From positions 5,656 to 69,655 of IMG/VR virus record IMGVR_UViG_3300020577_001702: a stretch of DNA of 64,000 nt; one strand, given 5' to 3'. The position numbers and the translations under genes are program-made. Origin of the DNA: a virus (lineage: Duplodnaviria > Caudoviricetes). The notes below the pieces were generated by a model. It ran no database searches. It had not been told where the DNA came from and saw only the letters and a list, made by a program, of their open reading frames with translations. This document shows positions 5,063 through 55,658 of the stretch, piece after piece (position 1 is the stretch's first letter; each line of letters opens with the position of its first letter).

Positions 5063-5322
5063 TTGGAACAAAATCGGAACATTGCCTCATTTTTAGGCAA
5101 CTTCAAACGGTCGTTTGAATTACCCATGTGGATTAGTAGGGTATTGGCACCGATTTATGGGATGTATACTCGGAACATTGGAACACCTAAGTCATTGATT
5201 TATTGGGTTTGTTCCGATTGTTCCGAAATTTTAAAGGTTTCAGTGAGAGAAGAGGGTGTTTGGGCTCATGCATGTATCGCCAAATCCTGACTGAACTTTT
5301 AAAAATCGGAACATTGGAACAC
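5063..5322. other. GGAACA iteron cluster with IHF-consensus site (origin-like element A)
   Basis: TCGGAACATTGGAACAC at 5170 and 5306, inverted TGTTCCGATTGTTCCGA at 5210, half sites at 5063/5074, WATCAANNNNTTR match at 5188-5200 (- strand), AT-rich. Confidence 0.55.
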
Positions 5323-36355: not shown

Positions 36356-39300
36356 ATGGGAGCTTTCGACCGTGCTGCACCCGTTCTAGTCCAGAACAAC
36401 CCGCTTGACTCGTTTGGTCAACCGGGTGAACTGGTCAAGGGTCTACGCCGTGGTATCACCGGCACTACCGCTGGCCTGCAAGCGGCTGCTGGTCAGGTGG
36501 TGCAGCCGATGTCGCCCGAGCTGGGCACCGCCATCATCCAGGACGCCATCGCCGCCGAGCATGCGTCACAACAGCGCAACGCCCCTCGCGTCGGCACGTG
36601 GAAGGACGCGCAACTCAGTGGTGCGAACTTCGCAGACTATCTGCTCGCCAAGGGCAGCGAGGCTGTACCGGCGCTGCCGGTCGCCATGGTGGGTGGTGTC
36701 GCCGGCAAGCTGGCGGGCCTCGGCGGCGCTGTAGGCGGCGCGGCTGCGTTCCAGCCAGTGATGATGGGTAGCGAGGCTATGCGCCTCCAGAACGATCCCG
36801 CAGCCGCTGATCTGACGCCTGGGCAGAAGCTCCTGCACGCGGGTGGCTTCGGTGCTGCGGAAGCTGCGGCGATGGGTGCGGTACCGGGCATGATGGGTTC
36901 GCGCCTGCTGTCCCGCGCGCCTGTGACCTCGTTCGGTGGCGCAGCCTCGAAGGCGCTGCTCGACACTGGCGTGAACAGTGTCGGCATGGGTGCGGGCATG
37001 GCTGCTGGCGACGTGATCGGTCAGCTCGGTCAGCGCACGTACAACCCGAACGCGGTGTACGACCCGGAGGCGACGAAGGAAGCCTTCGTCGGTGGTGTGG
37101 CTGCTGGCCTGCCGCTGGCTGGACCGCACGCCGCCCTGGCTCGTGGTCTGGACGTGGCGAAGGCTGGCGCTGTGGACGCGCCGCTGGAAGCTACCCGCTC
37201 GGCGCTGACACGCGTGCGCGAGCGCCTGCCTGACGCGGTGCGCCCCTTCGCTGACGCGATCATCGGCGGTGGCGAGGTGACGACGGACGCTGTGAACGCG
37301 CTGGCTCCCTACGCCGACATCCTCGGTATCGGCGCGAAGACCGTGTTCAACCGGGTCAGCGAGGCGGCGAAGAACGCCGGCCAGAACATCGCCGACGCCC
37401 ACAACGCGAGCCTGTTGACGCCCTCCGATGTGGTGGCTGGCGCGACGGATGTCGGTGCTGCGCTGGTGGGTGGTATCGAAGGCACGGCCCCGGACATGAT
37501 CAAGGCACTGAAGGCCCAAGCAGCGGCTGACGGTGTAAAGCTGGACTTCTCCGCTGACAAGAGCGACGCCGAGAACCTGAATGCCTTGTCGGACTACATG
37601 AAGAAGTATCACCCCAGCGCTGCGAAGCCGCTGGCTCGTCCTGGTACTGGTTTCCAGCAGCAGATGGCCGGTATGGTGCGAAAGAGCCTGGGTAACGATC
37701 TGAGCCTCGATGAGACCGGCCAGCTCAAGAGCCTGCTCGACAAGGTGGACGCCGGTCAAGAGCTGTCGCCGGCTGAGTCGACCCAACTCTGGAGCGCCAC
37801 CAGCACGCTGTCTGGCAAGGTGGCGAACCGCGAGCGCTTCAGCAAGGACTTGGCCGAGCTGGCTGACTGGCAGGAGAAGACCGGCAAGACCGCGCCTACT
37901 GCGGAAGACACCGGCCTCAAGTTCAGCAAGCAGAAGGTGAAGGATCAAGCACGGGAGAGCGCAAGGGATGTGTTCGGCTCGGCACAGATGCGCGAGGCTC
38001 TGGCGGAGCTACAGGTCGCGCCGGAAGTCATCGACGGCGTGCTGGACCGGATTCAGGCCAAGGATATCAAGGAGCGCGGCGTCGAGCTTGTGATTCGCCG
38101 TGCAGTCACGTCGGCGTTGACGAAGCGCGGCATGAAGGACTTCGCCCGCCGGGGTGCTCCGGTGTACGACCTCATGACCACTGCGCTTCGCGAGAAGCTG
38201 GCTGAGAAGTTCCCCCGGAAGCAGAAGGAGAACGCGCCCGCTGAGTGGGAGCAATCCCCTGAGTTCGAGCGTGGCGTGGACAACATCGTCGGCGAGCTGA
38301 TCACTGCCTCGGATAAACCCGAGCTGAAGAACCCCGAAAACATGCTGGATGCCTCATACGGTATCGCGGACTTCATCAACAAGCTGTCGTCCGGCAAGGC
38401 GGATTATGCCCGCCGCGCCGATCAGTTCCGTTCGTTCCTGACCCGGAACTTCGGCGACAACGCGAGCTGGGCGGCTGACCGGATCATCAAGCTGGCCGAG
38501 ACCGAGTACGCCGGCCAGCCGGAGCGCGTCGAACGCCTGAAGGCCCTGCGCGAGTCCCAGGACACGCTGGATGCCGTGACTGCCGAGCTGAAGAAGACTG
38601 CCGGCTACGGCGGTGCGAAGATGGCCGACCACATGATCAGCGAGTACCGCAAGGCGCGGGCGGTGGACGAGCAGGCCAAGGACTTCAGCAAGTACTACAA
38701 CGGCGCGAAGCGCCTGCGCGAGGTGGCGGCTCAGCTTGAGGAGCACTCCATCAACGCGGTGAACCCGGAGCGTGCCCAATCTGCCCTGGAGAAGGCTGAC
38801 AAGCTGCGCACCCGCGCCGACGAGCTGGAGGCGCAGGCCGGCGAGGCGTCGAAGGGCGGCAGCGCCCTGGCCCAGCTTCGTGCTCGTTGGATCGGCTCGG
38901 AGCTGATCAAGGCGAAGAACGACGAGGGTCAGCGCGGTGACGTGTTCGACCGCGTGGCGAAGCTAGTCGAGAAGTACGAGCGGGCGAACAACGCGCGTAC
39001 CGACCGGGAGAAGGCGCAGCGTGAACAGCGCTCTGGCAGCATGGAGCTGGCAGACGACATGGACCTGGAGTCCTACATCCGCAAGATCACCCGCGACGAA
39101 GACGGGAACTCGAACGGAGTGGACAACGAGACCGGCCGGCAGGGCGAGGAGGGTGGTGCGAAGTGGTACGGCACTGACATCCTCCACACCGAGGCGCGCG
39201 GCAAGCTGACGAAGAACGGCCGGTCGGCCTCGGTGAACAAGACCGAGACTGGCGCGTTCCTGTCGTCGCACCCGAGCATGGTCTACGCCGACGAGCACGG

Positions 39301-42300
39301 GAACCCGCGCAGCCCGCTGGCGATGGCTCGTGATCTGCTCTACGAGAACGAGGTGGGTCATCGTGTGGCTACCGTCCGCACCAAGACCCCGGAGCAGTGG
39401 GTCAACGAGGTTGGTGGGAACCCGCACGAGATGTTGAAGCAGGCCATGGCGGATGTGGTGGCGCACGACAAGCGGATGCTGAAGGACTACGCCGGCAAGC
39501 TGGGTGCGAAAGAAGCCGAGGCGATGAAGAAGCGCATCGAGCTGTTCGAGTCCGGTGCGACTGGTGTGGAGTTCTTCAATAGCCCGTGGGCAAAGAAGAT
39601 GCGGATGCTGAAGGTCGAACAGAACGCTGGCGACACGATGGCGCTGGACGAGCAGGAGATCGTGTCGTCCTCAGTGCGGAACTTCAACACCCACGAGACT
39701 GGCGAATCCGCTGCGGCCTACGCTGCTCGGATGCAGCGCCAGGAAGGCTCATTCAAGACCACGGCTCCGTACGAGAAGGCCCTGTTCCCAGTCGAGCTGA
39801 TGGACAAGGGCAAGCCGATGCTGAACCCGGAAGGCAAGCCGGTGGTGATGCAGCTCGACTTCGCCAAGCTGGTGCAGCGCGTGCTGCGTGAGCACCAGAG
39901 CGGCGACACGGCTGGTGTCAGCCCCGAGAGCTTCATGGAGAAGCTGAAGAACACAGTGCATGAGGTAGTCGGTGCGCTGCTGGCGTCGGATAGCGTCAAC
40001 GCCGAAGCCTTCAAGAAGGCCATGCGGAAGACCAACGAGGGTGAGCTGCTGCCGCTCGATCTGGTTGCCTACCGCAGCAAGGGTGAAGGCGCTCGCTCGT
40101 TCACCTACGGGCAGGTGGCCGGCATCAAGGAGATCACGAAGGCCGGCGACGTGGTGCGGAAGAACATCGAGCTGGTCGAGACTCCTCGCAGCGGTAAGGA
40201 GCGTGCTGCCAAGGGCTCGAACGAGATGGTGACGAACGAGGCCGTGAAGGGTATCCCGTTCACCGACCGCAAGGCTGTGACCGACATCCCTGACCAGCGC
40301 ACTGTGGACTCCTACGTCACGCGCTCGACGCCGGCTGCGAAGTCCGCCTCTACCGCTCGGGCTGTCGCTGAGAAGGGTGGCGTCACCTACGACATCAACC
40401 TGAACCGGCTGCTGGTCGAGACGCTGCACGCCAACGAGATCGACGGCCAGAAGCACGTCCAGGAAGGCGACCTACCGACGAAGCTGGCGGCGAAGATGCT
40501 CCAAGAAGGGTTGGCGAACCTGGAGCACCTGGGCTACAAGATCGACCGCTCCAAGCTGGCGGACGTGGAGGTCTACCGCAAGCAGTATGGCGACAAGACC
40601 GAGCCGGTGTTGCAGAAGAAACTCAACGCCGAGGTGGGCGACGTGCCACGTGACATCGAGGGTGCGAAGGCCCAGGAGACCCGCGACCTGATCGAGTCGT
40701 ACCGTGGCAAGATCGAGAAGACCCTCGGTGATCTCGACCTCGCGAATGAACAACTCGGTAGCAAGCTGGGTGGACGTGACGAGCTGCTGGAGAAGCAGGA
40801 TGCCCTGCTGGAAGCGCAGGTGAAGGAAGCGCGGCAGATGCTGGCCGACATGAAGCGGCAAGGTTTTGTGGACCTGAGCGTTGGTGATCACCTTTCGCTG
40901 GACCGAGGTGTGCGCGTCAATGAGGGTCGGAAGACTGCGGACGAGGCCGGCGTCGGTGAGATGGAAGCGCTGCGGATCAAGGAGAACTTCAAGGAGTTCG
41001 GCGGCAAGCAGAACGCTCCGGTGTTCGATGTAGCTGAGGCGTACGGCTCGAAGCGGCAGGGCAGCACTGAGCCGCCCAAGCGCGACATCCCTGAGACCGT
41101 GGAGACGCTGAAGCAACGTGTCGAGGAAACTCGTGCTGCGATGGAGGAGGCGCTGAGGCAGATCGAAGCCGGCGTCGAGCCGAAGGTGCCTGCCACCGAC
41201 GACATCAACGCCGCCAAGAACCGCGCAGCCGAGGCTGAGCTGAAGGAAGCGCCGGTTGTGGCTGCGAAGACGAAGGTCGCCCGCGAGCAGAAGAGTGAGC
41301 ACGCCGAGCGCAAGGCCCAGGCGCGGCTGCTCAACGACGAGCGCAACGCCCGCAAGATCAATGCCGACCTGGACCGCCGCATGAGTGCGAACGAGTCCGA
41401 CGCGGTGACGGACCTTGTGATGGAGCTGGATGGCGCTGAGAAGCCCATGGCTCCGCGAGTGCTGGCTGACAAGCTGGCAGGCATGACGCCGGAGCAGCGC
41501 TCCACGCTGCGCGCCACACTGGAGAACTCCGAGTCCGTCGCGGCGAAGGCAGCTACGAAAATGATCGACGCGAAGTACCCGGTGGGTGCTCGCGGCGAAG
41601 ATACCCCGTTCAGCAAGCAGACTCCGCAAGGTGTACGCGAGGCTGCTGACGCGATGCAGGCTGAGCACGGGCGGCTGGTCGGCGCTATGAAGGCGGTGGT
41701 TGAGACGGTCGAAGGGCTGAAGCTCGGCGACAAGGAGATCACCGGCCAGTACTCGAAGGCGACCAAGGAAGCTGTGGCGAAGATCGTGATGAACGCTGCG
41801 GCCGGCATGGAAGGCGTGCACCACGAGACGTGGCACCACATCGAGGCGCTGCTCGACGGCATGGGTGAGCACGGCAAGCACATCAAGGACATCGTGTACA
41901 AGGCGATGGAAGCCGAGCATGTGAAGCAGTGGCTGGCCGAGAAATTTGCCGGCGACGAGGGTGCGCTCAGCCAGTTGGAGTCTCCCAGCGAGCGGGCTGC
42001 GTTCGCGTTCCAGCGCTTCATGGCCGGTGACAAGCTGCCGCTGGCTCCGAAGGCGCGCAGCGTGTGGCAGAAGCTCGCCGACTGGGTACGAAACCTCGTC
42101 GGGTTGACCAGCTCCGAGGACAAGGCCCGGAACTTCTTCGAGTACATCAAGGAAGAGGGCTTCGCTCGGGACGTAGAGAACCCCGAGGCGCTGATTCGCG
42201 GGATCAAAGAGACCCGCATGGACAATATGCTCAAGGGTGCGAAGAAGACACTGAAGCCGTTCGGCGAGGTGCTGGACAAGCTGATCGAGCATGGTGACAA

Positions 42301-44017
42301 CCGCGTGCGCAAGCACGGGGTGAAGTCGTACGAAGCGTTGATGAACAAGTACGTCGGCGAGACCGGCAAGGGCGGCTACCAGTCTGCGAAGCACCAGCAG
42401 TACTACAAGTGGGGCAACCAGTTCGCCCAGTTCTTCGATAAGCACCAGGGCGCGGACTACACCCACCCTGGCTGGGACGCCATGCAGACCAGCTTCGAGA
42501 ACTACATGCGCAGCGCCGGTGTGTCGGACGCTCAGATCAAGAGCCTGCGCAACAACCTGGACGGCTACAACAAGATCGAGGCGGACAGCCGCTTCGAGGA
42601 GCTGGTAGCGGACATCGCGAACCACGGTGGGTTGCCCAAGACTCGCGGCATCTCGGCGCGGGATGTGGCGACGCAGATTGTGGACCGTGGCTACTTCTAC
42701 GACCCGGACTTCAAACTCTTCGACGGCGCACCGAGAGTCGCTGCGAAGTGGATGGCGAAGAACCCGGTGGACAAAGCCATCGCCTACGCCACGAAGGGCA
42801 CGGAACTGGCCGAACGTACACGAGCCTTCGGCGAGGTCACGAAGGAGACCCCGTACGGCAAGGAGTTCCACGAGCTGCTGAAGAAAGGCGACACCGAGGC
42901 CACCAAGGAAGCCCAGCAGGACATGCAGGAGTTCATCAAGGGGTGGGAGCACACCTACGAGAACTCCATGTCGCCTGGGCTGAAGAAGGTTATCGGCTCG
43001 ATCCAGCTCTTCGAGAACGCTCGCCTGTTGCCGCTGGCCGTGTTCTCCCAGGCGCTGGAGCCGATGCAGCTCGCCCTGCGCCGGAACAGCTTCGAGGGTA
43101 TCGGCGGTTCGCTGTGGCGCGGGATCAAGAACCTGCCGCGTGCCTTCGACACCCTGGACGCGAAGTACACTCCCGACTATTGGGAGAAGTTCGCCATGAA
43201 CCTCGGTACCGCCCAGCACCGCATCCTGGACGGCGCTGTCGGCCGCATGGTCAACGGTATGCGCCTGCCTGGGTGGGTCGGGGAGATCAACGACAAGTTC
43301 TTCCAGTACAACTTCATGAACACCTGGAATCGCTCGATGCACATCGAGGCGACCAAGCACGCCGTGGAGTTCCTGAAGGAGCACGCTCGGGGCGTCAACA
43401 AGGTACACTCCGACCGTTTCCTGAATGAGCTGCACATTGGGCGCGACGAGGTGTTGAAGAACATCATCCGCGAGGGTGATATCGAGTCGCTGAAACTGAC
43501 CCCGAACATCGAGCGGGCGATCTGCCAGTGGGTGAACGAGGCCATGGCTCACGCTGACGCCGGTAGCAACCCGTTCTGGATGAACGACCCTCGGTTCGCA
43601 CTGATCTCCCAGATGAAGCGGTTCACGTTCTCCCATAGCAAGTACATGTTGGATCGTGGCATCCGCGAGTGGCAGCTCGGCAACACGTGGGTGGCAGCGC
43701 CTGCTGTCCTGGCGATGCCGTGGATGCTGGCGTCAGACGCTGTGCGGGATACCCTGACCGGCAAGGACATGGCCTACCGGGCGAACTGGGGTGTCTCGGA
43801 CTACGCCATGCACGCCTACGAGCGTGCCGGTCACACCGGGATCAGCCAGTTCGGTGCGGACGCTTGGCGGGACGTGAAGGTGGGCGGCAGTGGCCTGGGT
43901 TCGCTCCTGGGGCCGGCTGCGCAGAGCTTCGGCGACACCCTCCGGGGTGCCAACACAGGGCACATGATCGACGCCCTGATCGGTAACAGCCCGTCCGGAC
44001 GCCTCCTCGGTGTCTAG
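36356..44017 (+). CDS. Giant internal virion/ejection protein (2553 aa) with HExxH metallopeptidase-like motif
   Basis: Gly/Ala hydrophobic N-terminus; HETWH encoded at 41822-41836; last gene of the structural block. Confidence 0.85.
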   Translation: MGAFDRAAPVLVQNNPLDSFGQPGELVKGLRRGITGTTAGLQAAAGQVVQPMSPELGTAIIQDAIAAEHASQQRNAPRVGTWKDAQLSGANFADYLLAKGSEAVPALPVAMVGGVAGKLAGLGGAVGGAAAFQPVMMGSEAMRLQNDPAAADLTPGQKLLHAGGFGAAEAAAMGAVPGMMGSRLLSRAPVTSFGGAASKALLDTGVNSVGMGAGMAAGDVIGQLGQRTYNPNAVYDPEATKEAFVGGVAAGLPLAGPHAALARGLDVAKAGAVDAPLEATRSALTRVRERLPDAVRPFADAIIGGGEVTTDAVNALAPYADILGIGAKTVFNRVSEAAKNAGQNIADAHNASLLTPSDVVAGATDVGAALVGGIEGTAPDMIKALKAQAAADGVKLDFSADKSDAENLNALSDYMKKYHPSAAKPLARPGTGFQQQMAGMVRKSLGNDLSLDETGQLKSLLDKVDAGQELSPAESTQLWSATSTLSGKVANRERFSKDLAELADWQEKTGKTAPTAEDTGLKFSKQKVKDQARESARDVFGSAQMREALAELQVAPEVIDGVLDRIQAKDIKERGVELVIRRAVTSALTKRGMKDFARRGAPVYDLMTTALREKLAEKFPRKQKENAPAEWEQSPEFERGVDNIVGELITASDKPELKNPENMLDASYGIADFINKLSSGKADYARRADQFRSFLTRNFGDNASWAADRIIKLAETEYAGQPERVERLKALRESQDTLDAVTAELKKTAGYGGAKMADHMISEYRKARAVDEQAKDFSKYYNGAKRLREVAAQLEEHSINAVNPERAQSALEKADKLRTRADELEAQAGEASKGGSALAQLRARWIGSELIKAKNDEGQRGDVFDRVAKLVEKYERANNARTDREKAQREQRSGSMELADDMDLESYIRKITRDEDGNSNGVDNETGRQGEEGGAKWYGTDILHTEARGKLTKNGRSASVNKTETGAFLSSHPSMVYADEHGNPRSPLAMARDLLYENEVGHRVATVRTKTPEQWVNEVGGNPHEMLKQAMADVVAHDKRMLKDYAGKLGAKEAEAMKKRIELFESGATGVEFFNSPWAKKMRMLKVEQNAGDTMALDEQEIVSSSVRNFNTHETGESAAAYAARMQRQEGSFKTTAPYEKALFPVELMDKGKPMLNPEGKPVVMQLDFAKLVQRVLREHQSGDTAGVSPESFMEKLKNTVHEVVGALLASDSVNAEAFKKAMRKTNEGELLPLDLVAYRSKGEGARSFTYGQVAGIKEITKAGDVVRKNIELVETPRSGKERAAKGSNEMVTNEAVKGIPFTDRKAVTDIPDQRTVDSYVTRSTPAAKSASTARAVAEKGGVTYDINLNRLLVETLHANEIDGQKHVQEGDLPTKLAAKMLQEGLANLEHLGYKIDRSKLADVEVYRKQYGDKTEPVLQKKLNAEVGDVPRDIEGAKAQETRDLIESYRGKIEKTLGDLDLANEQLGSKLGGRDELLEKQDALLEAQVKEARQMLADMKRQGFVDLSVGDHLSLDRGVRVNEGRKTADEAGVGEMEALRIKENFKEFGGKQNAPVFDVAEAYGSKRQGSTEPPKRDIPETVETLKQRVEETRAAMEEALRQIEAGVEPKVPATDDINAAKNRAAEAELKEAPVVAAKTKVAREQKSEHAERKAQARLLNDERNARKINADLDRRMSANESDAVTDLVMELDGAEKPMAPRVLADKLAGMTPEQRSTLRATLENSESVAAKAATKMIDAKYPVGARGEDTPFSKQTPQGVREAADAMQAEHGRLVGAMKAVVETVEGLKLGDKEITGQYSKATKEAVAKIVMNAAAGMEGVHHETWHHIEALLDGMGEHGKHIKDIVYKAMEAEHVKQWLAEKFAGDEGALSQLESPSERAAFAFQRFMAGDKLPLAPKARSVWQKLADWVRNLVGLTSSEDKARNFFEYIKEEGFARDVENPEALIRGIKETRMDNMLKGAKKTLKPFGEVLDKLIEHGDNRVRKHGVKSYEALMNKYVGETGKGGYQSAKHQQYYKWGNQFAQFFDKHQGADYTHPGWDAMQTSFENYMRSAGVSDAQIKSLRNNLDGYNKIEADSRFEELVADIANHGGLPKTRGISARDVATQIVDRGYFYDPDFKLFDGAPRVAAKWMAKNPVDKAIAYATKGTELAERTRAFGEVTKETPYGKEFHELLKKGDTEATKEAQQDMQEFIKGWEHTYENSMSPGLKKVIGSIQLFENARLLPLAVFSQALEPMQLALRRNSFEGIGGSLWRGIKNLPRAFDTLDAKYTPDYWEKFAMNLGTAQHRILDGAVGRMVNGMRLPGWVGEINDKFFQYNFMNTWNRSMHIEATKHAVEFLKEHARGVNKVHSDRFLNELHIGRDEVLKNIIREGDIESLKLTPNIERAICQWVNEAMAHADAGSNPFWMNDPRFALISQMKRFTFSHSKYMLDRGIREWQLGNTWVAAPAVLAMPWMLASDAVRDTLTGKDMAYRANWGVSDYAMHAYERAGHTGISQFGADAWRDVKVGGSGLGSLLGPAAQSFGDTLRGANTGHMIDALIGNSPSGRLLGV

Positions 44018-44144: not shown

Positions 44145-44345
44145 GTATACTCGGAACATTGGAACACCTTACCCTTTGATTCTTTTGGTTTGTTCCGATT
44201 GTTCCGAAATTTAGAGATATTCACGCAGGAAAGAAGAAGGAGACCCGACCCATGTATGTGCTCTATGTGGATGAAGCGCCAAAGATCGGAACGTTTTTGA
44301 CCTGTTCTGTTTGAAATCAATGGGTTGCGTGTTCCGATGTTCCAA
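44145..44345. other. Second GGAACA iteron cluster with IHF-consensus site (origin-like element B)
   Basis: 44145-44212 matches 5164-5231 with identical arms and spacing; AATCAATGGGTTG at 44315-44327; GTGTTCCGATGTTCCAA at 44329. Confidence 0.55.
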
Positions 44346-44532
44346 AGTGGTCTTTATTTTATGCGCAACGTCATAGGTTCTTGTCATAATTAGGCACCGG
44401 ACCTGACTGATCGGCAGACTTCTGCGGCTCAGGAGTTTTGGAAGATGTCCGGAGTTTTGGAAATTCAGATTCTGTTGGAGCCTGAAGAACCGCACTGGGA
44501 GCGGGTTTCCGGGTGGTGCCCTAGAGCGAACG

Positions 44533-44575
44533 ACGGATTAACAGTCCGGCGCTCTACCGACTGAGCTATCGGGGA
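44533..44575 (-). pseudogene. 5' half of tRNA-Asn(GTT), positions 1-43 only
   Basis: TCCCCGATAGCTCAGTCGGTAGAGCGCCGGACTGTTAATCCGT: acceptor 5' strand, D arm and anticodon arm with GTT; no T arm and no matching acceptor 3' strand. Confidence 0.85.
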
Positions 44576-44643
44576 ATGATGCGGGTTTCCGGGCGATTGA
44601 GCTTCCAAAACTTTCGCTCTCTTTGGCTCTCTTTCGCTCGACA

Positions 44644-44680
44644 GGGCGCGAACTCTAACAAGAGTTTTGGAAGAAGTAAA
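44644..44680 (-). promoter_or_regulatory. Sigma70-type stable-RNA-like promoter pointing at the tRNA 5' half
   Basis: -35 TTTACT (44680-44675), 17-bp spacer, extended -10 TGtTAGAGT (hexamer 44657-44652), GC-rich discriminator TCGCGCCC. Confidence 0.5.
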
Positions 44681-44692
44681 CTGGAACAATCG

Positions 44693-44741
44693 CGTGAAAC
44701 AATTCCGTGAAACACTCCGTGAAACACTCCGTGAAACAATA
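44693..44741. repeat. Four tandem 12-13-bp repeats CGTGAAACA(C/A)T; fifth copy at 44799
   Basis: Starts at 44693, 44706, 44718, 44730; a perfect DnaA box TGTGGATAA lies at 44766-44774. Confidence 0.8.
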
Positions 44742-44807
44742 GGGTAGGCCGGGACACCAGGAGCCTGTGGATAACTCAGCCACAGCCCGTGGAACAGTCG
44801 TGAAACA

Positions 44808-45011
44808 CTATGTTCTGGAGCAGGAGAAGCAGGTGAAAGCGTCGCCGGATTCGTCCGTGTAGCCGCCAGCCAGGGCCTGCACCTTCCGGCACCGGCAGCA
44901 GCGCCCGGTATGCACCCAGACGAACTGGCTTGGGTGGCGCTCGCGGTGCTGGATTACCCTGGTCACGGCTGCCTTGGCCTTCCGCAGCTCCTCGTCGGTC
45001 ATCTTAGGCAT
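44808..45011 (-). CDS. Small Cys-rich hypothetical protein (67 aa)
   Basis: CCRC...CFSC; last leftward gene before the att region. Confidence 0.5.
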   Translation of the reverse strand: MPKMTDEELRKAKAAVTRVIQHRERHPSQFVWVHTGRCCRCRKVQALAGGYTDESGDAFTCFSCSRT

Positions 45012-46742: not shown

Positions 46743-46947
46743 GACCCACCGTGACTTTCATCTTCGCTGTGACTCCCTCCAGGTTGAGGATGTCGCCGGC
46801 ACGCCAGAAGCTGTTCATCGTCGCTTCTGCGACGACGACACCTTTTCGGAGGTACTGGAACTTGTTGCCGTCTACGCGGAGACCGTCGAACTTGATGTAG
46901 GTCTTGATGTACTTCAGACCGAGCGGGGTGAGAGAAGGCGTGCTCAT
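46735..46947 (-). CDS. Hypothetical basic protein (70 aa)
   Basis: ATG overlaps the ligase stop. Confidence 0.5.
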   Translation of the reverse strand: MSTPSLTPLGLKYIKTYIKFDGLRVDGNKFQYLRKGVVVAEATMNSFWRAGDILNLEGVTAKMKVTVGHE

Positions 46948-47822
46948 GACATGTCTACCGGGTCGCGCCAACCAAGAAATACTGGGTGGCGAGGTGCCGT
47001 CTTAACCCCAACAGCGAAGTACTTGTACTTGGCAGTTTTGCCGAGATATTGATCTCGACTGTCCCATACCCGTTGTCTCTCAGCATCATCAAACCCAGTT
47101 CCAATGTTGAATTCGACGCCTTCTGGAGTTCGGACAACAAGGGCGCCAAGATCGCCGCGTCCAGACTTTCCAGCTTGATGCGAAGATCGTTTTGTCCTTC
47201 CCAACTCATTTGTAGTTGCTTCGTTTCCATTGTGCATCCTCTCTTCGAAACCGATGACGACAGCCTCGGCGTCGCTGAACCGCTTGAGCTTCAGTAGGTA
47301 GCCTTCCTTGACCGTGCTGCGGCCGAACTTGTAGGGCGCATCCGGGTCGCGCAGGATCAGACCCTCGTAGCCCTGGTCGAGTAGCTTCTGCTCCAAGGTC
47401 AGCAATGTGTCGAGACAGGTCACGACGTGCTGCGGGTGGGTGATGGTTGAAGTGTTGTTGAGTACAGGTCGGCTACGGCGGTTCACCTGCACGAGGCGGT
47501 TCTGGTAGCGCTCGCTCGGGTTCTGCACATGGTCGAACACATAGAAGCGCAGATCGAAGCCGGTCTTGTCGTGAGCCATGACGTGACTCACCGTGTCGCG
47601 GTACACAGTCTTGCTGCACGGGTCACCAACGATCAGCTCACCATCGAGATGTTCGAGATGGCAGAAGGCGTCCTGCACGAACTTGTTCGGGATCGGTTTC
47701 AGAGAGCGTGAGAGTACGACGCCGTTCTGCACGATGGCACGGATGCCGTCGAGCTTGGCCGAAGCCAGGAGTGGGAAGCGGAGTTTGTTGAGGTCCGCTT
47801 CGGCAGCGAGCATGGGTTTCAC
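46944..47822 (-). CDS. ATP-dependent DNA ligase
   Basis: KPMLA, KLDGIR, DGEL, FYVFD, EGLILRDP, LLKLK; GTG start overlaps the upstream TGA. Confidence 0.93.
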   Translation of the reverse strand: MKPMLAAEADLNKLRFPLLASAKLDGIRAIVQNGVVLSRSLKPIPNKFVQDAFCHLEHLDGELIVGDPCSKTVYRDTVSHVMAHDKTGFDLRFYVFDHVQNPSERYQNRLVQVNRRSRPVLNNTSTITHPQHVVTCLDTLLTLEQKLLDQGYEGLILRDPDAPYKFGRSTVKEGYLLKLKRFSDAEAVVIGFEERMHNGNEATTNELGRTKRSSHQAGKSGRGDLGALVVRTPEGVEFNIGTGFDDAERQRVWDSRDQYLGKTAKYKYFAVGVKTAPRHPVFLGWRDPVDMS

Positions 47823-47971
47823 GACGGCAGCCTTTCGATCTTGATGATGCTGTACATAAACATGCCGGCAGGCGTTCCTTGGATCGCGCTCATCAAGTTC
47901 CACGGATCAGAACTGACGACTACGCAGCGGAGATTGCTGCCGTCCCAGTAAGAGATTTGCCACGGTGTCAT
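47819..47971 (-). CDS. Small hypothetical protein (50 aa, MTPWQISYWDG...)
   Basis: Hand translation; exactly fills the thyX-ligase gap with GTGA coupling. Confidence 0.5.
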   Translation of the reverse strand: MTPWQISYWDGSNLRCVVVSSDPWNLMSAIQGTPAGMFMYSIIKIERLPS

Positions 47972-47973
47972 GA

Positions 47974-48588
47974 TTAGTCTCCAAAGATCGCCGGCCAGCG
48001 CTGGGCAAACTCCTGCTGGAGCGGCACCATGACTTCGCGGGCTTGGGGGTGAGCAGCTTTGTCACAGCGCATCTTGAAGATGTGCAGCCACTCGCGCGGG
48101 TTGGCCGTGATGACGATCTCCGTCTTCAGGCTGTTGGGAAGCACGGAGCGGGCCATCTGCGGCGGCATACCGAACTGAATTGCCTCAGCATAGTATTCGT
48201 CGGCGTTCTGCATTGCGTCGCACCACAGGGTGAACTGCTTTTCATCCATCGACGGAAACGCTGGACGCGGATCAATCACCGTGATCTCCTTGCCGAACTG
48301 GTCCTTGCTGTAGTTGCAGTAGCGCGTGGATTCCTGACTGAAGCTGGCGATGCGGTGACGTACCAGCTCGTGACTGACACCCCGGTCGCAGATCACCTTC
48401 ACACTGATGCTGCCGTGCTCCAGCACGGACTCGTGCTTGCTGTCGCGCAGGCGCTTGATGAACGCCGCCGCACTGTCGTCGGTGATGCGGTCTTCACTCT
48501 TGTAGCAGACGCGGCCGGCAAGCTCGATGGTCTGTTCCAGGTTCGGAGTGAATGCGATGATACGGGCACTAGCGTTGACGATCTTCAA
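47974..48588 (-). CDS. thyX: Flavin-dependent thymidylate synthase
   Basis: HESVLEH, RGVSHELVRHRIASFSQESTRY, ARSVLPN, R...AHPQ. Confidence 0.95.
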   Translation of the reverse strand: MKIVNASARIIAFTPNLEQTIELAGRVCYKSEDRITDDSAAAFIKRLRDSKHESVLEHGSISVKVICDRGVSHELVRHRIASFSQESTRYCNYSKDQFGKEITVIDPRPAFPSMDEKQFTLWCDAMQNADEYYAEAIQFGMPPQMARSVLPNSLKTEIVITANPREWLHIFKMRCDKAAHPQAREVMVPLQQEFAQRWPAIFGD

Positions 48589-50080: not shown

Positions 50081-50454
50081 GTGTAGTACTCCTTGCCGTC
50101 GTACTTCACCTCACCGCGCGACCACAGCAGCTTCAGGTGCTCGGCGTACTTCGCCGACGGCTGCTTGCCTTCGTCCAGCTCGGACATGAGCAAGTCCTTC
50201 GTGCTGCCGCCGATTTTACTAATGCTGGGTTTGCCGGGGGAGACGTTCGGGCGTTCGGCGTGCTGTGCCGTAGTAGGTTTGGTGTCTTCGTCAGGGACGC
50301 CGCCACCCGGCTCAGCCCACGGCTTCACCGTGTCCGGTCGAGCCTCCTTCGGTGCCATGAGGAATTTCCCAGCACCATCGACCTTCTTCATTGCCTCGAT
50401 GATCAGTTCAGCCTCAGTGGCTGAATCTGCGTACACCGTGATTGAGATTTTCAT
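50077..50454 (-). CDS. Hypothetical protein (125 aa)
   Basis: ATGA coupling on both sides. Confidence 0.55.
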   Translation of the reverse strand: MKISITVYADSATEAELIIEAMKKVDGAGKFLMAPKEARPDTVKPWAEPGGGVPDEDTKPTTAQHAERPNVSPGKPSISKIGGSTKDLLMSELDEGKQPSAKYAEHLKLLWSRGEVKYDGKEYYT

Positions 50455-50894
50455 AGCCACATGTAATCCACGCCGCACTCGGCGAAAAGTTTAGTGGACC
50501 GCTCGATGTGCTCTTCCCACCGCTGAATGAACTCGGACTCCGGTCGTTGACACCAGACGGTCTTTATTCCGGCTTGAACGATTGCGCGAGCGCAATCCAT
50601 GCAGGGTGGGTGGGTGACGATGATGTCGCTTCCGTCGAGCGGGGTACCGACCCTGGCAGCGTTTGTAATAGCGTTGAGTTCGGCGTGTGAAAACCAGAAG
50701 TATTTCTCAGGTCTCGTTGTGCCGCGTTCATCCTCGTCGGCGCGGCACCCACGAGGCGCACCGTTATACCCAAGGGACCGAACCTCACCACTCGGGCCGA
50801 GGACAATTGCCCCGACCTTTGTACTTTGATCTTTACTGAGGTTTGCGGTTGCACGCGCGATCTCCAGGTACTTCCGAGCCTTCTCGGGGGTCAT
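50451..50894 (-). CDS. dCMP deaminase
   Basis: LGYNGAPRG, HAELNAI, THPPCMDC. Confidence 0.93.
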   Translation of the reverse strand: MTPEKARKYLEIARATANLSKDQSTKVGAIVLGPSGEVRSLGYNGAPRGCRADEDERGTTRPEKYFWFSHAELNAITNAARVGTPLDGSDIIVTHPPCMDCARAIVQAGIKTVWCQRPESEFIQRWEEHIERSTKLFAECGVDYMWL

Positions 50895-52136: not shown

Positions 52137-53083
52137 GCTGCCAGCTTCAGCACACCATCGAAGACGCGCTGCTTGACGTTGAAGCCTTCACCGAACCACG
52201 CGCTGTCGAGCCGGTTGCCCTGGTTGCGGGCACGCTTCACATGGTCGACGTACTCGGTGGTGGCGTTGACCAGACCCCAGCCGGTGTTGGCAGCCAGATC
52301 AGCACCGATGTACTTGCGGTACCGGAACATGTCGACCACGTTATTCGCGTGGATGTGATCACTGAAACGTTGGGCTTCCAGCTCGTCCTGCGGCACCTTG
52401 AAGGCGTCGTTGACGATCTCCTGGGCCTTCTTCACATCGACGACGATCTTGGCGATAGAGTCCAGGGCCTTCGTGAACGCTTCCCACTGCGCCTGACCCA
52501 GGCCGAGCTGTTCGTGCACGGCGTCGATCTTGAACTCGCGGAAGTGCGGGATGACGATACGACCGTGCTGGTCGCCGAAGCTCTGCTGAAGCGTGTTGTT
52601 GCACACCACTCTGACAGAGGTGAAGTACGCCTGGGTAGAGAACGTCAGATCGTAGGACGTGGCGATGTTCAGGTAGCCGCGCACCTCGTCGGCGCCAAGC
52701 ACCTTGTGGGCGTCGCCGGTCGTTGCCAGCGCCCAGATGCGCTGTCCACCCTTGAGGGAGCCGGCCGTCTCGATCTTCATGTTGTGGCGGGAGAGCAGGG
52801 CGCGGAAGAACTCCAGCACCTCTTTCGGCTGCACTGGCTTGTAGCGGCCGGAGACCACCGAGAACGGGGTGTGGTCCGTGTCGCGAGCAAGTACGAACTT
52901 GTCCTTGAAGTTGTACTCGCCGCCGGCCTCCTCGCGGTACATGACCGGGCGCTTGCTCACGCTCCAGTCAAGACCAGCCTTACGCTGGATGTCCTCGATG
53001 GTGTCGTCGTCACCAATCGTATTGCCCAGGCCGTGCCAGGGCACCGCACCTCGGTAGGCCATCTGTTCAATCATGTGGGCCAT
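52133..53083 (-). CDS. DUF932/DUF945 phage-plasmid family protein
   Basis: MAYRGAVPWHGLG, AGLDWSV, VVSGRYKPVQ, ETAGSLKGG, RVVCNNTL, WGLVNATTEYVDH. Confidence 0.88.
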   Translation of the reverse strand: MAHMIEQMAYRGAVPWHGLGNTIGDDDTIEDIQRKAGLDWSVSKRPVMYREEAGGEYNFKDKFVLARDTDHTPFSVVSGRYKPVQPKEVLEFFRALLSRHNMKIETAGSLKGGQRIWALATTGDAHKVLGADEVRGYLNIATSYDLTFSTQAYFTSVRVVCNNTLQQSFGDQHGRIVIPHFREFKIDAVHEQLGLGQAQWEAFTKALDSIAKIVVDVKKAQEIVNDAFKVPQDELEAQRFSDHIHANNVVDMFRYRKYIGADLAANTGWGLVNATTEYVDHVKRARNQGNRLDSAWFGEGFNVKQRVFDGVLKLAA

Positions 53084-53891
53084 GCTTCGTTCTCCTTGAG
53101 TGAGGTTGTACAACGTCTGCCTGACGCTGTTTGATGTATTCCTCGGTCATACGTACGTTCTTGTGGCCGAGGAGTTTCTGCGCGGCGTATGGATCACCGA
53201 TGTCAGTGGCCGTTTTTCCGCGTATATCGTGTTCGTGAAAACGGGTGGTCCCAGACGACGCAAACTTCGTCATCACCCGCCTCCAGATCGAGCTGAATCC
53301 GCTTGACGCGTACTGTCGCCCCGAACGTGTCGCGAAGACCGTTTTCGACGAACGCGGCAATTTGTCGAGCAGGGTTTGAATCTCCGGCGTCAGCTTGATC
53401 ACGATGCGCTTGCCGGTGCTGTTTTTTGTCTTTAGGGGGCATACGGATATTCCTTCCTCTGTGATGTCCACCCACTTGAGTGCGAGCAGGTCTTGTTGCC
53501 GAAGGCCGGTGAGGACTTTGAGATCGACGTAGACTCGGAGCCAATCAGGGCAAAGCATCTTGAACTGTTCAAGTTCCGAGTCCGTGACGTACCTGTCCCG
53601 CGCCTTAAGGCTGTTGCGTAGCCCTGGCGTAGAACAGGGATTCGCTGTAGCCACTCCCCAAAGGATTCCTTGGTTGAAGGCGTGCGAGAGTAGTGCAATC
53701 TCGCGGTTGCCACGCGTCTTAGCGCGCCGCGTGCGAACATATTCAAGCACGTGCCGTGGTTCAACCTGCGTACAAACCATGTCACCGAAGAATGCGCGGA
53801 GAAAGCGAATCTCCTGGCGGTTATCCTTCTGAGTGCGTTCTGCCTTGCTTGGTACGACATCAAGGAGGTAGCGGTTGAGTAGGTCGGACAC
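53067..53891 (-). CDS. int: Tyrosine integrase, core-binding + catalytic domains only (start uncertain)
   Basis: TVSDLLNRY, LTGLRQQDL (R), KTKNSTGK (K), HDIR (H,R), LLGH...EEY (H,Y). The track's 88 N-terminal residues are the shadow frame of the upstream gene. Confidence 0.85.
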   Translation of the reverse strand: MSDLLNRYLLDVVPSKAERTQKDNRQEIRFLRAFFGDMVCTQVEPRHVLEYVRTRRAKTRGNREIALLSHAFNQGILWGVATANPCSTPGLRNSLKARDRYVTDSELEQFKMLCPDWLRVYVDLKVLTGLRQQDLLALKWVDITEEGISVCPLKTKNSTGKRIVIKLTPEIQTLLDKLPRSSKTVFATRSGRQYASSGFSSIWRRVMTKFASSGTTRFHEHDIRGKTATDIGDPYAAQKLLGHKNVRMTEEYIKQRQADVVQPHSRRTKHGPHD

Positions 53892-54229
53892 AGTTGGATG
53901 TTGTGCTTCCCTGAAAGACGAGAGGGTGACGGCAGCGGGCTTATGGGTTTGGCGTCTTCCTTCCGGTCCCAGATGTAGCTGTACCGGGCGAAAGATGTGG
54001 ACTCCTTGGGTGCCGGGAACCGCGTAACCAGTCCTCGCCGCCACATGAAGCCCAGGGCATCCGACAGTTTGTTGGTTGCGAGTCGAACGTCTTGTTGACC
54101 AAATTCGGCTAAAGCCGCCTTGCGAATCTCCTGGATGTCCATGAGGTCTACGCACGTGACTGGTTCTTCCGTCGCTCGTAAGTGTTTCTCCAGCAAGCTA
54201 TAGATCGTCTTCTCAGACTTTATACCCAT
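53432..54229 (-). CDS. Winged-helix DNA-binding protein (about first 110 aa); C-terminus is an alternate frame of int
   Basis: SD GGGAGG; helix-strand-helix-helix-wing pattern IYSLLEKHL..PVTCVDLM..LSDALGFMWRRGLVTR..RYSYIW. Confidence 0.6.
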   Translation of the reverse strand: MGIKSEKTIYSLLEKHLRATEEPVTCVDLMDIQEIRKAALAEFGQQDVRLATNKLSDALGFMWRRGLVTRFPAPKESTSFARYSYIWDRKEDAKPISPLPSPSRLSGKHNIQLCPTYSTATSLMSYQARQNALRRITARRFAFSAHSSVTWFVRRLNHGTCLNMFARGALRRVATARLHYSRTPSTKESFGEWLQRIPVLRQGYATALRRGTGTSRTRNLNSSRCFALIGSESTSISKSSPAFGNKTCSHSSGWTSQRKEYPYAP

Positions 54230-54395: not shown

Positions 54396-54800
54396 TTACC
54401 CTTCAGTTTGTTGTCTGATCCATCCTGCCAGATCAGTGCGCTCCCTCAAGCGGGCACGGAACTCCGCGAGACTGAGGTTTTCCTGCTCCCACTCTAGGTC
54501 ACGCAAGACGATACCGCCAGCCGGACAGCCGATGATTGCTGCGACGTTCCGACCTTCGCGGTGCCGACCGGACAGCCACTGGTGCTGGAGCACCGAGAAC
54601 AGCTTTGCGATCTGCACCGAACCCCGCTGCGGTACGCGCGGGATGTACTTGTACTCCACCCACAAATCGTTGAGCCTGCCTGAATACCAGTCGTCAGCCG
54701 TACCGGAGCTGTACGGGTTGTTCATTTTCTCATGATGAATGGTTTTCGGGAGCAAACGGTTGACGCCTGCCCGAAAATTATTTTCTGGCTTGCGAGCCAT
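54396..54800 (-). CDS. PD-(D/E)xK nuclease, VRR-NUC/Holliday-junction-resolvase-like
   Basis: GTADDWY...LWVEYK...HQWL. Confidence 0.75.
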   Translation of the reverse strand: MARKPENNFRAGVNRLLPKTIHHEKMNNPYSSGTADDWYSGRLNDLWVEYKYIPRVPQRGSVQIAKLFSVLQHQWLSGRHREGRNVAAIIGCPAGGIVLRDLEWEQENLSLAEFRARLRERTDLAGWIRQQTEG

Positions 54801-55113
54801 GCCGGTCGTCAAGCTCAGGGTGGGTTTTAGTGTACTCTATTACGAAAGCCAGATTGCAGCGAGCGTGCGCAAGATGCGACAACCCGGTCTCCGGGTCAAC
54901 ATCTTCTCCCTCCAAGAAGGCGAAGATATGCCGCAGGCCGGCATCGAGTACACGTGTCCAGGACAAACCCTTGCGCCAGTTGTTCCGGCCGTACTTATTG
55001 CCACCGAACGCCAGGACTCGGGCCTCGGCTTCCAGAGCCGAGACCGGAATCCATGAGAGCGGCGGCTTACCGGCGTCGTGTTTGACGCCGGCAGTCAGAG
55101 CAGGTTTCTTCAC
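54778..55113 (-). CDS. dATP/dGTP diphosphohydrolase (DUF5664)
   Basis: KHDAGKP, GGNKYGRNNW, RH, DPETGLSHLAHARCN; GTG overlaps the upstream TGA. Confidence 0.88.
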   Translation of the reverse strand: MKKPALTAGVKHDAGKPPLSWIPVSALEAEARVLAFGGNKYGRNNWRKGLSWTRVLDAGLRHIFAFLEGEDVDPETGLSHLAHARCNLAFVIEYTKTHPELDDRHGSQARK

Positions 55114-55658
55114 GCCGCCCACTGGAACTGGCCCTCCTTGATCGACATCCACACGCGCTGGAGCGTCTGCGCTTGCGCCTTGGCGTCTTCCAGGGCGTTG
55201 TGCGCCACGGTCGGCTCGACCTTCAGCCCGCCCCAAGTCTGCCGGCTGAACATACCCTTGATGGTGCGGAAGTCGCGGCAGTCGTAATAGCGCCACGGGG
55301 AGGGCATACCTAGGTTGCGGTAGGCCGTGTCCAGGATCGGGATGTCGAAGTTCAGGCCGTTGCACCAGACGTTCGTGCCGGTCCAGTCGAACGCCACCGA
55401 CAGCTCGCGCAACGCTGAGCGAAGGTCGATGCCATCCTCGGAGAACATGAGGCGGGAGGGTTCGGACTGCTCCATCCACCAGCGGATGGTGCGCCCTTCA
55501 GGCTTCAGGCCGGCGCGGAAACAACTGTCCAAGTCCACCACGGCGTAGAACTCAGCGCCGAGTGAAGTGTCATCGAACGCAACAGCGCCGATGGAAGCGA
55601 TAGCGCTGTCAGCGCCAGTACCCAGAGTTTCGATGTCGATCATTACGTGCTGAGACAT
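55110..55658 (-). CDS. DEDD 3'-5' exonuclease (DUF5051-like)
   Basis: HVMIDIETLG, WCNG..FDIPIL, HNALEDA. Confidence 0.9.
   Translation of the reverse strand: MSQHVMIDIETLGTGADSAIASIGAVAFDDTSLGAEFYAVVDLDSCFRAGLKPEGRTIRWWMEQSEPSRLMFSEDGIDLRSALRELSVAFDWTGTNVWCNGLNFDIPILDTAYRNLGMPSPWRYYDCRDFRTIKGMFSRQTWGGLKVEPTVAHNALEDAKAQAQTLQRVWMSIKEGQFQWAA

Follow-up and report, generated by a model that had tools for sequence, protein, structure and literature searches.

A probable λ-type attP of reversed polarity, carrying the 5' half of tRNA-Asn, in a ~70-kb tailed phage whose integrase has lost its arm-binding part

We suggest that the truncated tRNA-Asn gene between the two convergent gene blocks of this phage genome is the core of an attachment site of the λ Int type, that the polarity of the tRNA in this site is reversed relative to conventional tRNA attP sites, and that the site has probably been orphaned in this genome; to this account as a whole we assign a probability of roughly four in five. 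That the site is a reversed-polarity attP, as a sequence-only reading had proposed, is supported by comparison with relatives and is in our view highly probable. The reversed arrangement as such is already known and is uncommon. What is added here is (i) a resolved λ-like arm architecture, (ii) a lysogen with both junctions, (iii) a single Int clade that shows both polarities, and (iv) a genome in which the integrase has lost its arm-binding part.

The IMG/VR record of 69,655 bp is a free phage genome that has a 77-bp direct terminal repeat and is rated complete. The window, i.e. the whole stretch of 64 kb that was analysed, corresponds to bases 5656-69655 of this record, and all coordinates refer to the window. 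The structural genes lie on the + strand and end with an ORF of 2553 aa (36356-44017); the early and replication genes, among them those for a ligase, ThyX, a dCMP deaminase, a DUF932 protein and other DNA-metabolism proteins, lie on the - strand in a block that ends at 44808. The site of the tRNA fragment is the 790-bp gap between these convergent blocks, and the placement is the same in all relatives. The presence of a protein with a dATP/dGTP diphosphohydrolase N-domain hints at a manipulated purine dNTP pool (Table 1). In the phage record collection the window has no close relative: the sole DNA match is the tRNA itself, and the terminase reaches no more than 43% identity with those of KPP25-like phages. 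A match to the Ralstonia "phage" YO103_6 was rejected as an attP; this unverified record contains the full host tRNA-Asn. The counterpart of the 2553-aa ORF in the relative L005 has a precomputed Pfam match to an ART-PolyVal domain.

Table 1. Features of the attachment site, the integrase region and selected early genes (window coordinates)
Feature	Coordinates	Strand	Remarks
attP core, tRNA-Asn(GTT) nt 1-43	44533..44575	-	identity block shared with host gene
Anticodon loop, predicted 7-bp overlap (crossover) region	44538..44544	-	inferred; anticodon-stem inverted repeat around it
Arm site P1	44663..44672	-	exact 10-mer, direct on int strand; 126.5 bp from loop centre; inside promoter spacer
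Arm site P2	44603..44612	+	exact 10-mer, in inverted orientation to the other three; 66.5 bp from loop centre
Arm site P'1	44453..44462	-	exact 10-mer; 83.5 bp from loop centre
Arm site P'2	44434..44443	-	exact 10-mer; 102.5 bp from loop centre
Three 10-bp-phased 9-mers (repeat family D5)	44611..44639	+	between P1 and P2
13-bp direct repeat, copy 1	44501..44513	+	20 nt past fragment end
13-bp direct repeat, copy 2	44581..44593	+	5 nt upstream of tRNA position 1
Candidate promoter toward tRNA fragment	44645..44680	-	-35 at 44680-44675, 17-nt spacer
Candidate promoter, TGn and -10	44660-44652	-	-10 at 44657-44652
Candidate promoter, GC-rich discriminator	44651-44645	-	followed by ~69-nt leader
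Tyrosine integrase (5'-truncated gene)	53067..53903	-	core-binding and catalytic domains only; PF00589, E = 1.7e-17
Deletion junction	53904..53914	-	flanks out of frame; tblastx against L089, L090, L005
5' two-thirds (first ~100 codons) of conserved 133-aa gene	53915..54229	-	
ATP-dependent ligase	46944-47903		
ThyX	47974-48588		
dCMP deaminase	50451-50894		
dATP/dGTP diphosphohydrolase N-domain protein	54778-55479		

The claim that only positions 1-43 of a tRNA-Asn are present at 44575-44533 is confirmed. The fragment is identical to the tRNA-Asn of Ralstonia solanacearum at 43/43 positions, and the likeness ends abruptly past position 43. The window contains no tRNA that ARAGORN recognizes, and the fragment scores 26.8 bits with the Rfam tRNA model, which is under the 29-bit cut-off because the T arm is missing; with neither a T arm nor a 3' acceptor strand to complete the cloverleaf, the fragment is not a functional tRNA gene. 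In every relative the 3' side of the anticodon stem marks the end of the identity block. The 13-bp direct repeats previously noted at 44501 and 44581 are likewise real: the two copies are exact, lie 80 bp apart so that they bracket the fragment, and have no other copy in the window; no counterpart was seen in the relatives.

The host is probably a member of the Burkholderiales, and the earlier hint at a betaproteobacterial host holds in that the 43-mer is present in Burkholderiales tRNA-Asn genes. An exact copy occurs in ~5% of the sampled Burkholderiales genomes; at no more than one mismatch (exact or with T at position 4) the 43-mer is found in 43 of the 401 sampled, about half of these being exact. 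In one Neisseria genome it differs at 3 positions, and in one Pseudomonas genome it was not found within 3 mismatches. For a ~70-kb phage family with genes of its own for DNA polymerase, helicase, ligase and nucleotide metabolism, these data point to a probable Burkholderiales host together with a temperate ancestry.

Three free relatives, with Int proteins 55-63% identical to that of the window, carry the 5' half of tRNA-Asn at the same convergent junction. In L005/L006/L007 (Int 63% identical) and in L089 (Int 61% identical) tRNA-Asn nt 1-41 lie on the int strand and are followed by unrelated sequence. L260 carries a 5' half with a CAT anticodon. Other members carry 3' halves, namely of tRNA-Asn (nt ~30-76) in L261, with an Int 49% identical, of tRNA-Lys in L008/L009, and of tRNA-His, on the opposite strand, in G003 (L090/L251). 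We tentatively consider that both the target tRNA and the half carried have switched repeatedly within one Int clade of fixed geometry and that polarity is easily reversible, a reading that we hold to be possible rather than probable; attP polarity would then be set only by the side of the loop that keeps tRNA homology. With the same Int clade and geometry and opposite tRNA halves, these genomes in any case form a natural series for studying the origin of reversed attP sites. The L005 record, at 98,135 bp, is ~28 kb longer than the ~70-kb relatives and yet has the free attP form; it may represent a concatemeric assembly or a larger genome. Separately, the Burkholderia phages Magia and BgManors32 contain unannotated fragments (MT701587 27110-27158; OK665842 24737-24784) with 94% identity to the 3' half of tRNA-His in G003; these are probably conventional attP cores.

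An integrated relative supplies both junctions. The 82-kb JGI contig that is the source of L172 is the IMG/VR provirus G001 (L091, L249), which recurs at 100% identity in an ENA sample as L255. At attR (L172), 9 kb downstream of int, the last early gene is followed by a promoter of the form -35/17/-10 with a GC-rich discriminator, by two arm sites, the first direct and the second inverted, and by a complete tRNA-Asn, beyond which the DNA is bacterial. At attL (L249), a host aminotransferase gene, a consensus host promoter and tRNA-Asn nt 1-41 are followed by a terminator hairpin, the two direct arm sites of the P' arm and the C-terminus of the giant gene, which is 30% identical to that of the giant ORF in the window. 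A prophage relative with junctions in tRNA-Asn and the phage on the 5' side, as the sequence-only reading had anticipated, thus exists; for the phage of the window itself no lysogen was found, and the junction evidence comes from this relative, the Int of which is 55% identical.

The junctions of G001 also reveal which partner gave which part of the gene. Position 4 of the tRNA is T in the complete tRNA-Asn at attR, as it is in the free forms L005 and L089, and is C, the host base, in the fragment at attL, which argues that the phage gave the 5' end and the promoter and that the exchange took place 3' of position 4. With the T at position 4, the pairing to the host 3' strand is G.U, and this lysogen therefore has a phage/host chimeric tRNA-Asn with a G.U pair in its acceptor stem, downstream of a phage promoter. 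At one end the provirus call for G001 takes in ~1 kb of host DNA (L249 1-1071), and at the other it breaks off ~250 bp before the rebuilt tRNA is reached; tools that set prophage boundaries on the expectation of a 3' fragment put the ends in the wrong place in such cases. Downstream of the rebuilt tRNA-Asn, L172 (20080-20631) contains a short remnant of the N-terminus of a P4-like integrase and then a 3'-half tRNA-Asn repeat. This stretch is a decayed conventional island, and elements have thus made use of this tRNA gene from either side.

These comparisons bear directly on whether the fragment could be a decayed phage tRNA-Asn pseudogene unrelated to integration. Many large phages carry tRNA-Asn genes, and the fragment gives a match to the Rfam tRNA model, though one below threshold. 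However, nt 1-43 are perfect and are followed by no likeness at all, the same truncation point recurs in three other lineages with diverged flanks, and the lysogen G001 splits the fragment exactly into attL and attR. Full tRNAs at this place in relatives had been named as the sign of simple decay; none of the free-form relatives has a full tRNA at the convergent junction, and the free relatives share the truncated 5' half, which excludes simple decay. We therefore give the pseudogene explanation almost no weight. Readings of the fragment as a prophage scar or as captured host DNA were rejected on the same grounds.

The arms of the proposed attP are likewise consistent with a recombination site. 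Four arm-like sites, three direct and one inverted, had been described on the two sides of the fragment, and this description stands: the sites are exact and are positioned as the arm-type sites of relatives. The four 10-mers are confined to a 240-bp stretch and have no further exact copy in the 64-kb window. With up to one mismatch to the 10-mer, the window contains 7 matches against 1.6 expected, and none of 100 shuffles reached 7. Each relative has a 9-11-bp repeat of its own in the pattern direct, inverted, core, direct, direct. Distances were measured from the centre of each repeat to the centre of the anticodon loop (Table 2), in a comparison that covered the relatives whose flanks extend to the site (those of L258 and L259 end before attP) and, for L008, the side other than P'. 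In addition, P1 of L260 lies at the P1 distance of the window. Across the clade the sequences of the arm sites form one family, and those of the window and L260 differ at 2 of 10 positions. Judged from the sequences, a fixed spacing combined with a varying sequence should be expected of arm-type Int sites that co-evolve with the arm-binding domain.

Table 2. Distance (bp) from repeat centre to anticodon-loop centre
Genome	P1	P2	P'1	P'2
Window	-126.5	-66.5	+83.5	+102.5
L005	-126.5	-66.5	+82.5	not seen
L089	-125.5	-66.5	+84.5	+103.5
L261	not seen	-66.5	+84.5	+103.5
G001 (lysogen)	-146.5	-87.5	+82.5	+101.5
G003	-147	-87	+84	not seen

Because the spacing is constant whatever the tRNA, the half or the strand, we infer that the crossover is placed at the anticodon loop; the anticodon stem would supply the inverted core sites, with the crossover in the loop between them. 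Between P1 and P2, an AAAGAG-rich stretch in L005, L261 and G003 is equivalent to the phased 9-mers of the window, which may be sites for bending or for an accessory protein.

A σ70 promoter with an extended -10 and a GC-rich discriminator had been proposed to point into the fragment. This proposal stood in part: the elements are present and have homologous counterparts in relatives, but the candidate matches the consensus at only 8 of 12 positions, plus the TGn, and is not listed by a consensus promoter scan with a threshold of 9/12 positions. The candidate aligns with the promoter of L005, which has a better -35 and in which P1 also lies in the 17-nt spacer, and the -10 and the GC-rich discriminator are common to the window, L089, the attR of L172 and the host tRNA-Asn promoter in L249. 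By these alignments the promoter of the window is positionally homologous to the better promoters in L005, L089 and L172. Members with a 5' half have a -10 hexamer and a GC-rich discriminator upstream, and G003, with a 3' half, has none. The link between promoter and polarity is an imperfect one, since L008, another carrier of a 3' half, does have a promoter-like site upstream. L005, L089 and L249 have a terminator hairpin directly after the half-tRNA, whereas no clear hairpin follows the fragment in the window. The arm site in the promoter spacer of 5'-half members raises the idea that Int binding could gate transcription of the rebuilt tRNA-Asn.

A promoter directed into the fragment, from which the free phage would transcribe ~69 nt of leader plus the 43 nt of tRNA, also accords with a different function, in which the 5' half is chiefly expressed as a small RNA, as a decoy or regulator in infection, and its use as attP is secondary. 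Members with identical geometry carry 3' halves or other tRNAs, a pattern to be expected of a recombination site rather than of a conserved RNA, and we regard a primary role as small RNA as very unlikely.

Combining the site, its relatives and the lysogen, we suggest the following scheme for integration by the reversed attP. The core would correspond to the 5' half of the host tRNA-Asn as far as the anticodon arm, and strands would be exchanged within the 7-nt anticodon loop. Read along the int strand, the site would consist, in this order, of (i) the P arm with the promoter, the direct site P1 and the inverted site P2, (ii) tRNA nt 1-43, and (iii) the P' arm with two direct sites. The target would be the tRNA-Asn gene of a Burkholderiales host. 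At the giant-gene end of the prophage, the host promoter and the host 5' half would be left as a dead fragment, and at the int-proximal end the host 3' half would be completed by the promoter and 5' half of the phage to give a working gene. The exact position of the crossover, the activity of the promoter and any involvement of IHF or Xis are parts of the scheme that we infer.

The whole genome encodes one tyrosine integrase and no serine recombinase. The int gene is on the same strand as the fragment and lies 8.5 kb upstream of attP rather than next to it, a separation that counts against the attP reading, although it is found throughout the clade. Int retains the catalytic residues Arg, His-x-x-Arg, His and Tyr, in alignment columns that are invariant or nearly so. 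Single-protein scans of genome and viral collections for relatives of this Int gave nothing useful, and relatives were retrieved with a profile built from metagenomic homologues; among species-representative genomes there was no close relative of Int except on one short MAG contig that resembles phage DNA. The metagenomic homologues are 320-332 aa long and 54-67% identical to the Int of the window. They begin with a conserved N-terminal domain of ~57 aa, a profile of which matches the arm-binding domain of λ Int (PDB 1KJK, E = 5e-4), and the homology of the Int in the window starts at their residue ~57.

The gene order in relatives is a 133-aa gene, a DUF4224 gene and int. In the window, the product of the truncated 133-aa gene is 56-63% identical to those of separate genes upstream of the DUF4224 gene and int in L005, L008, L089 and L090. 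Compared with relatives, ~430-650 nt are absent at the deletion junction: the 133-aa gene has lost its 3' end, the DUF4224 gene is gone entirely and Int is without its arm-binding domain. Neither DUF4224 nor an arm-binding domain was found elsewhere in the whole genome by tblastn searches with the missing parts. The product of the 133-aa gene, earlier called a wHTH protein, matches no Pfam family, and that of the DUF4224 gene is possibly an excision factor. For what remains of int, no separate start is evident. In principle, an assembly error could have produced the apparent deletion.

As this Int lacks the arm-binding domain and the DUF4224 gene is gone, attP is probably orphaned: we consider it somewhat likelier than its opposite that the phage is an integration-defective, effectively lytic derivative that has recently lost integration. 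In the case of λ Int, arm binding is required for integrative attP x attB recombination, and, on the evidence of the gene sequence, recombination of attP with attB by the Int of the window itself is doubtful. Alternatively, attP may still function in this phage, through a frameshift fusion of Int with the product of the 133-aa gene, through the truncated Int, or through an Int acting in trans; a related resident prophage, for instance, might supply an Int that acts on the intact arm sites. In favor of this, none of the four arm sites departs from the 10-mer, the core matches host tRNA genes at every position, Int has kept its catalytic residues, and the Int frame continues open upstream as far as a GTG at 54155. 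Nevertheless, the 133-aa gene and Int are in offset frames, no canonical slippery site was seen where they meet, relatives have the 133-aa gene as a gene apart, and the λ-type arm-binding domain and DUF4224 are absent genome-wide. A functional attP in this phage is thus the less favored possibility, if one to be taken seriously, and we favor an orphaned site.

Several known systems resemble the reversed attP in part. Conventional tRNA attP sites with the crossover in the anticodon loop, as Williams is said to have described in 2002, carry the 3' half. Within the clade L261 has this conventional form: it shares with the window the Int clade, the tRNA-Asn target and the arm geometry, whereas its half lies on the P' side of the loop and the nt 1-43 of the window lie on the P side, together with a promoter. 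Zhao and Williams reportedly found, also in 2002, an integrative element with a reversed orientation of the target gene that carries the 5' part of a tRNA. As in that element, the 5' tRNA part is carried, a promoter and 5' half would be supplied to the host gene, and a 5' fragment would be left at the far end. In contrast to it, the genome studied here is that of a ~70-kb tailed phage with its own replication genes and with int 8.5 kb from attP, a λ-like layout with four arm sites has been mapped, and a single Int clade includes both polarities. With λ, the system shares an Int N-terminus (in relatives) that matches the arm-binding domain in 1KJK, a PF00589 catalytic domain, and arm sites on both sides of the core with one of them inverted. 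The system departs from λ in that its core lies in a tRNA anticodon arm and not in attB(gal-bio), that it has four arm sites where λ has five, that relatives have DUF4224 in place of Xis, of which no homologue was identified, and that the Int of the window lacks the N-domain entirely. According to the relevant passage of one article (PMC6563490, which cites Zhao and Williams 2002 as its bacterial reference and as one of the few cases of the kind), recombination that involves the 5'-distal portion of tRNA genes is a good deal rarer than that involving the 3' part.

Finally, an IHF site had been assigned to the attP at 44315. The consensus is present at this position, but it is not specific to attP. 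Only two matches to the IHF consensus occur in the 64-kb window, at 44315 (+) and 5200 (-), and both lie in the middle of clusters of GGAACA repeats (5064-5315 and 44152-44344) that are built from the unit (T/C)GGAAC(A/G) in both orientations. Since both matches lie inside such clusters, we assign the one at 44315 to this twinned element and not specifically to attP. The repeat clusters are possibly sites for a regulator, an origin or partition, and similar GGAAC repeats are present past the P' arm of G003. On the other side, directly after the last early gene, the 8-mer GTGAAACA is present in five same-strand copies that, within the window, are found only at 44694-44807; G003 has conserved the beginning of this stretch (L251, about 1790-1812).
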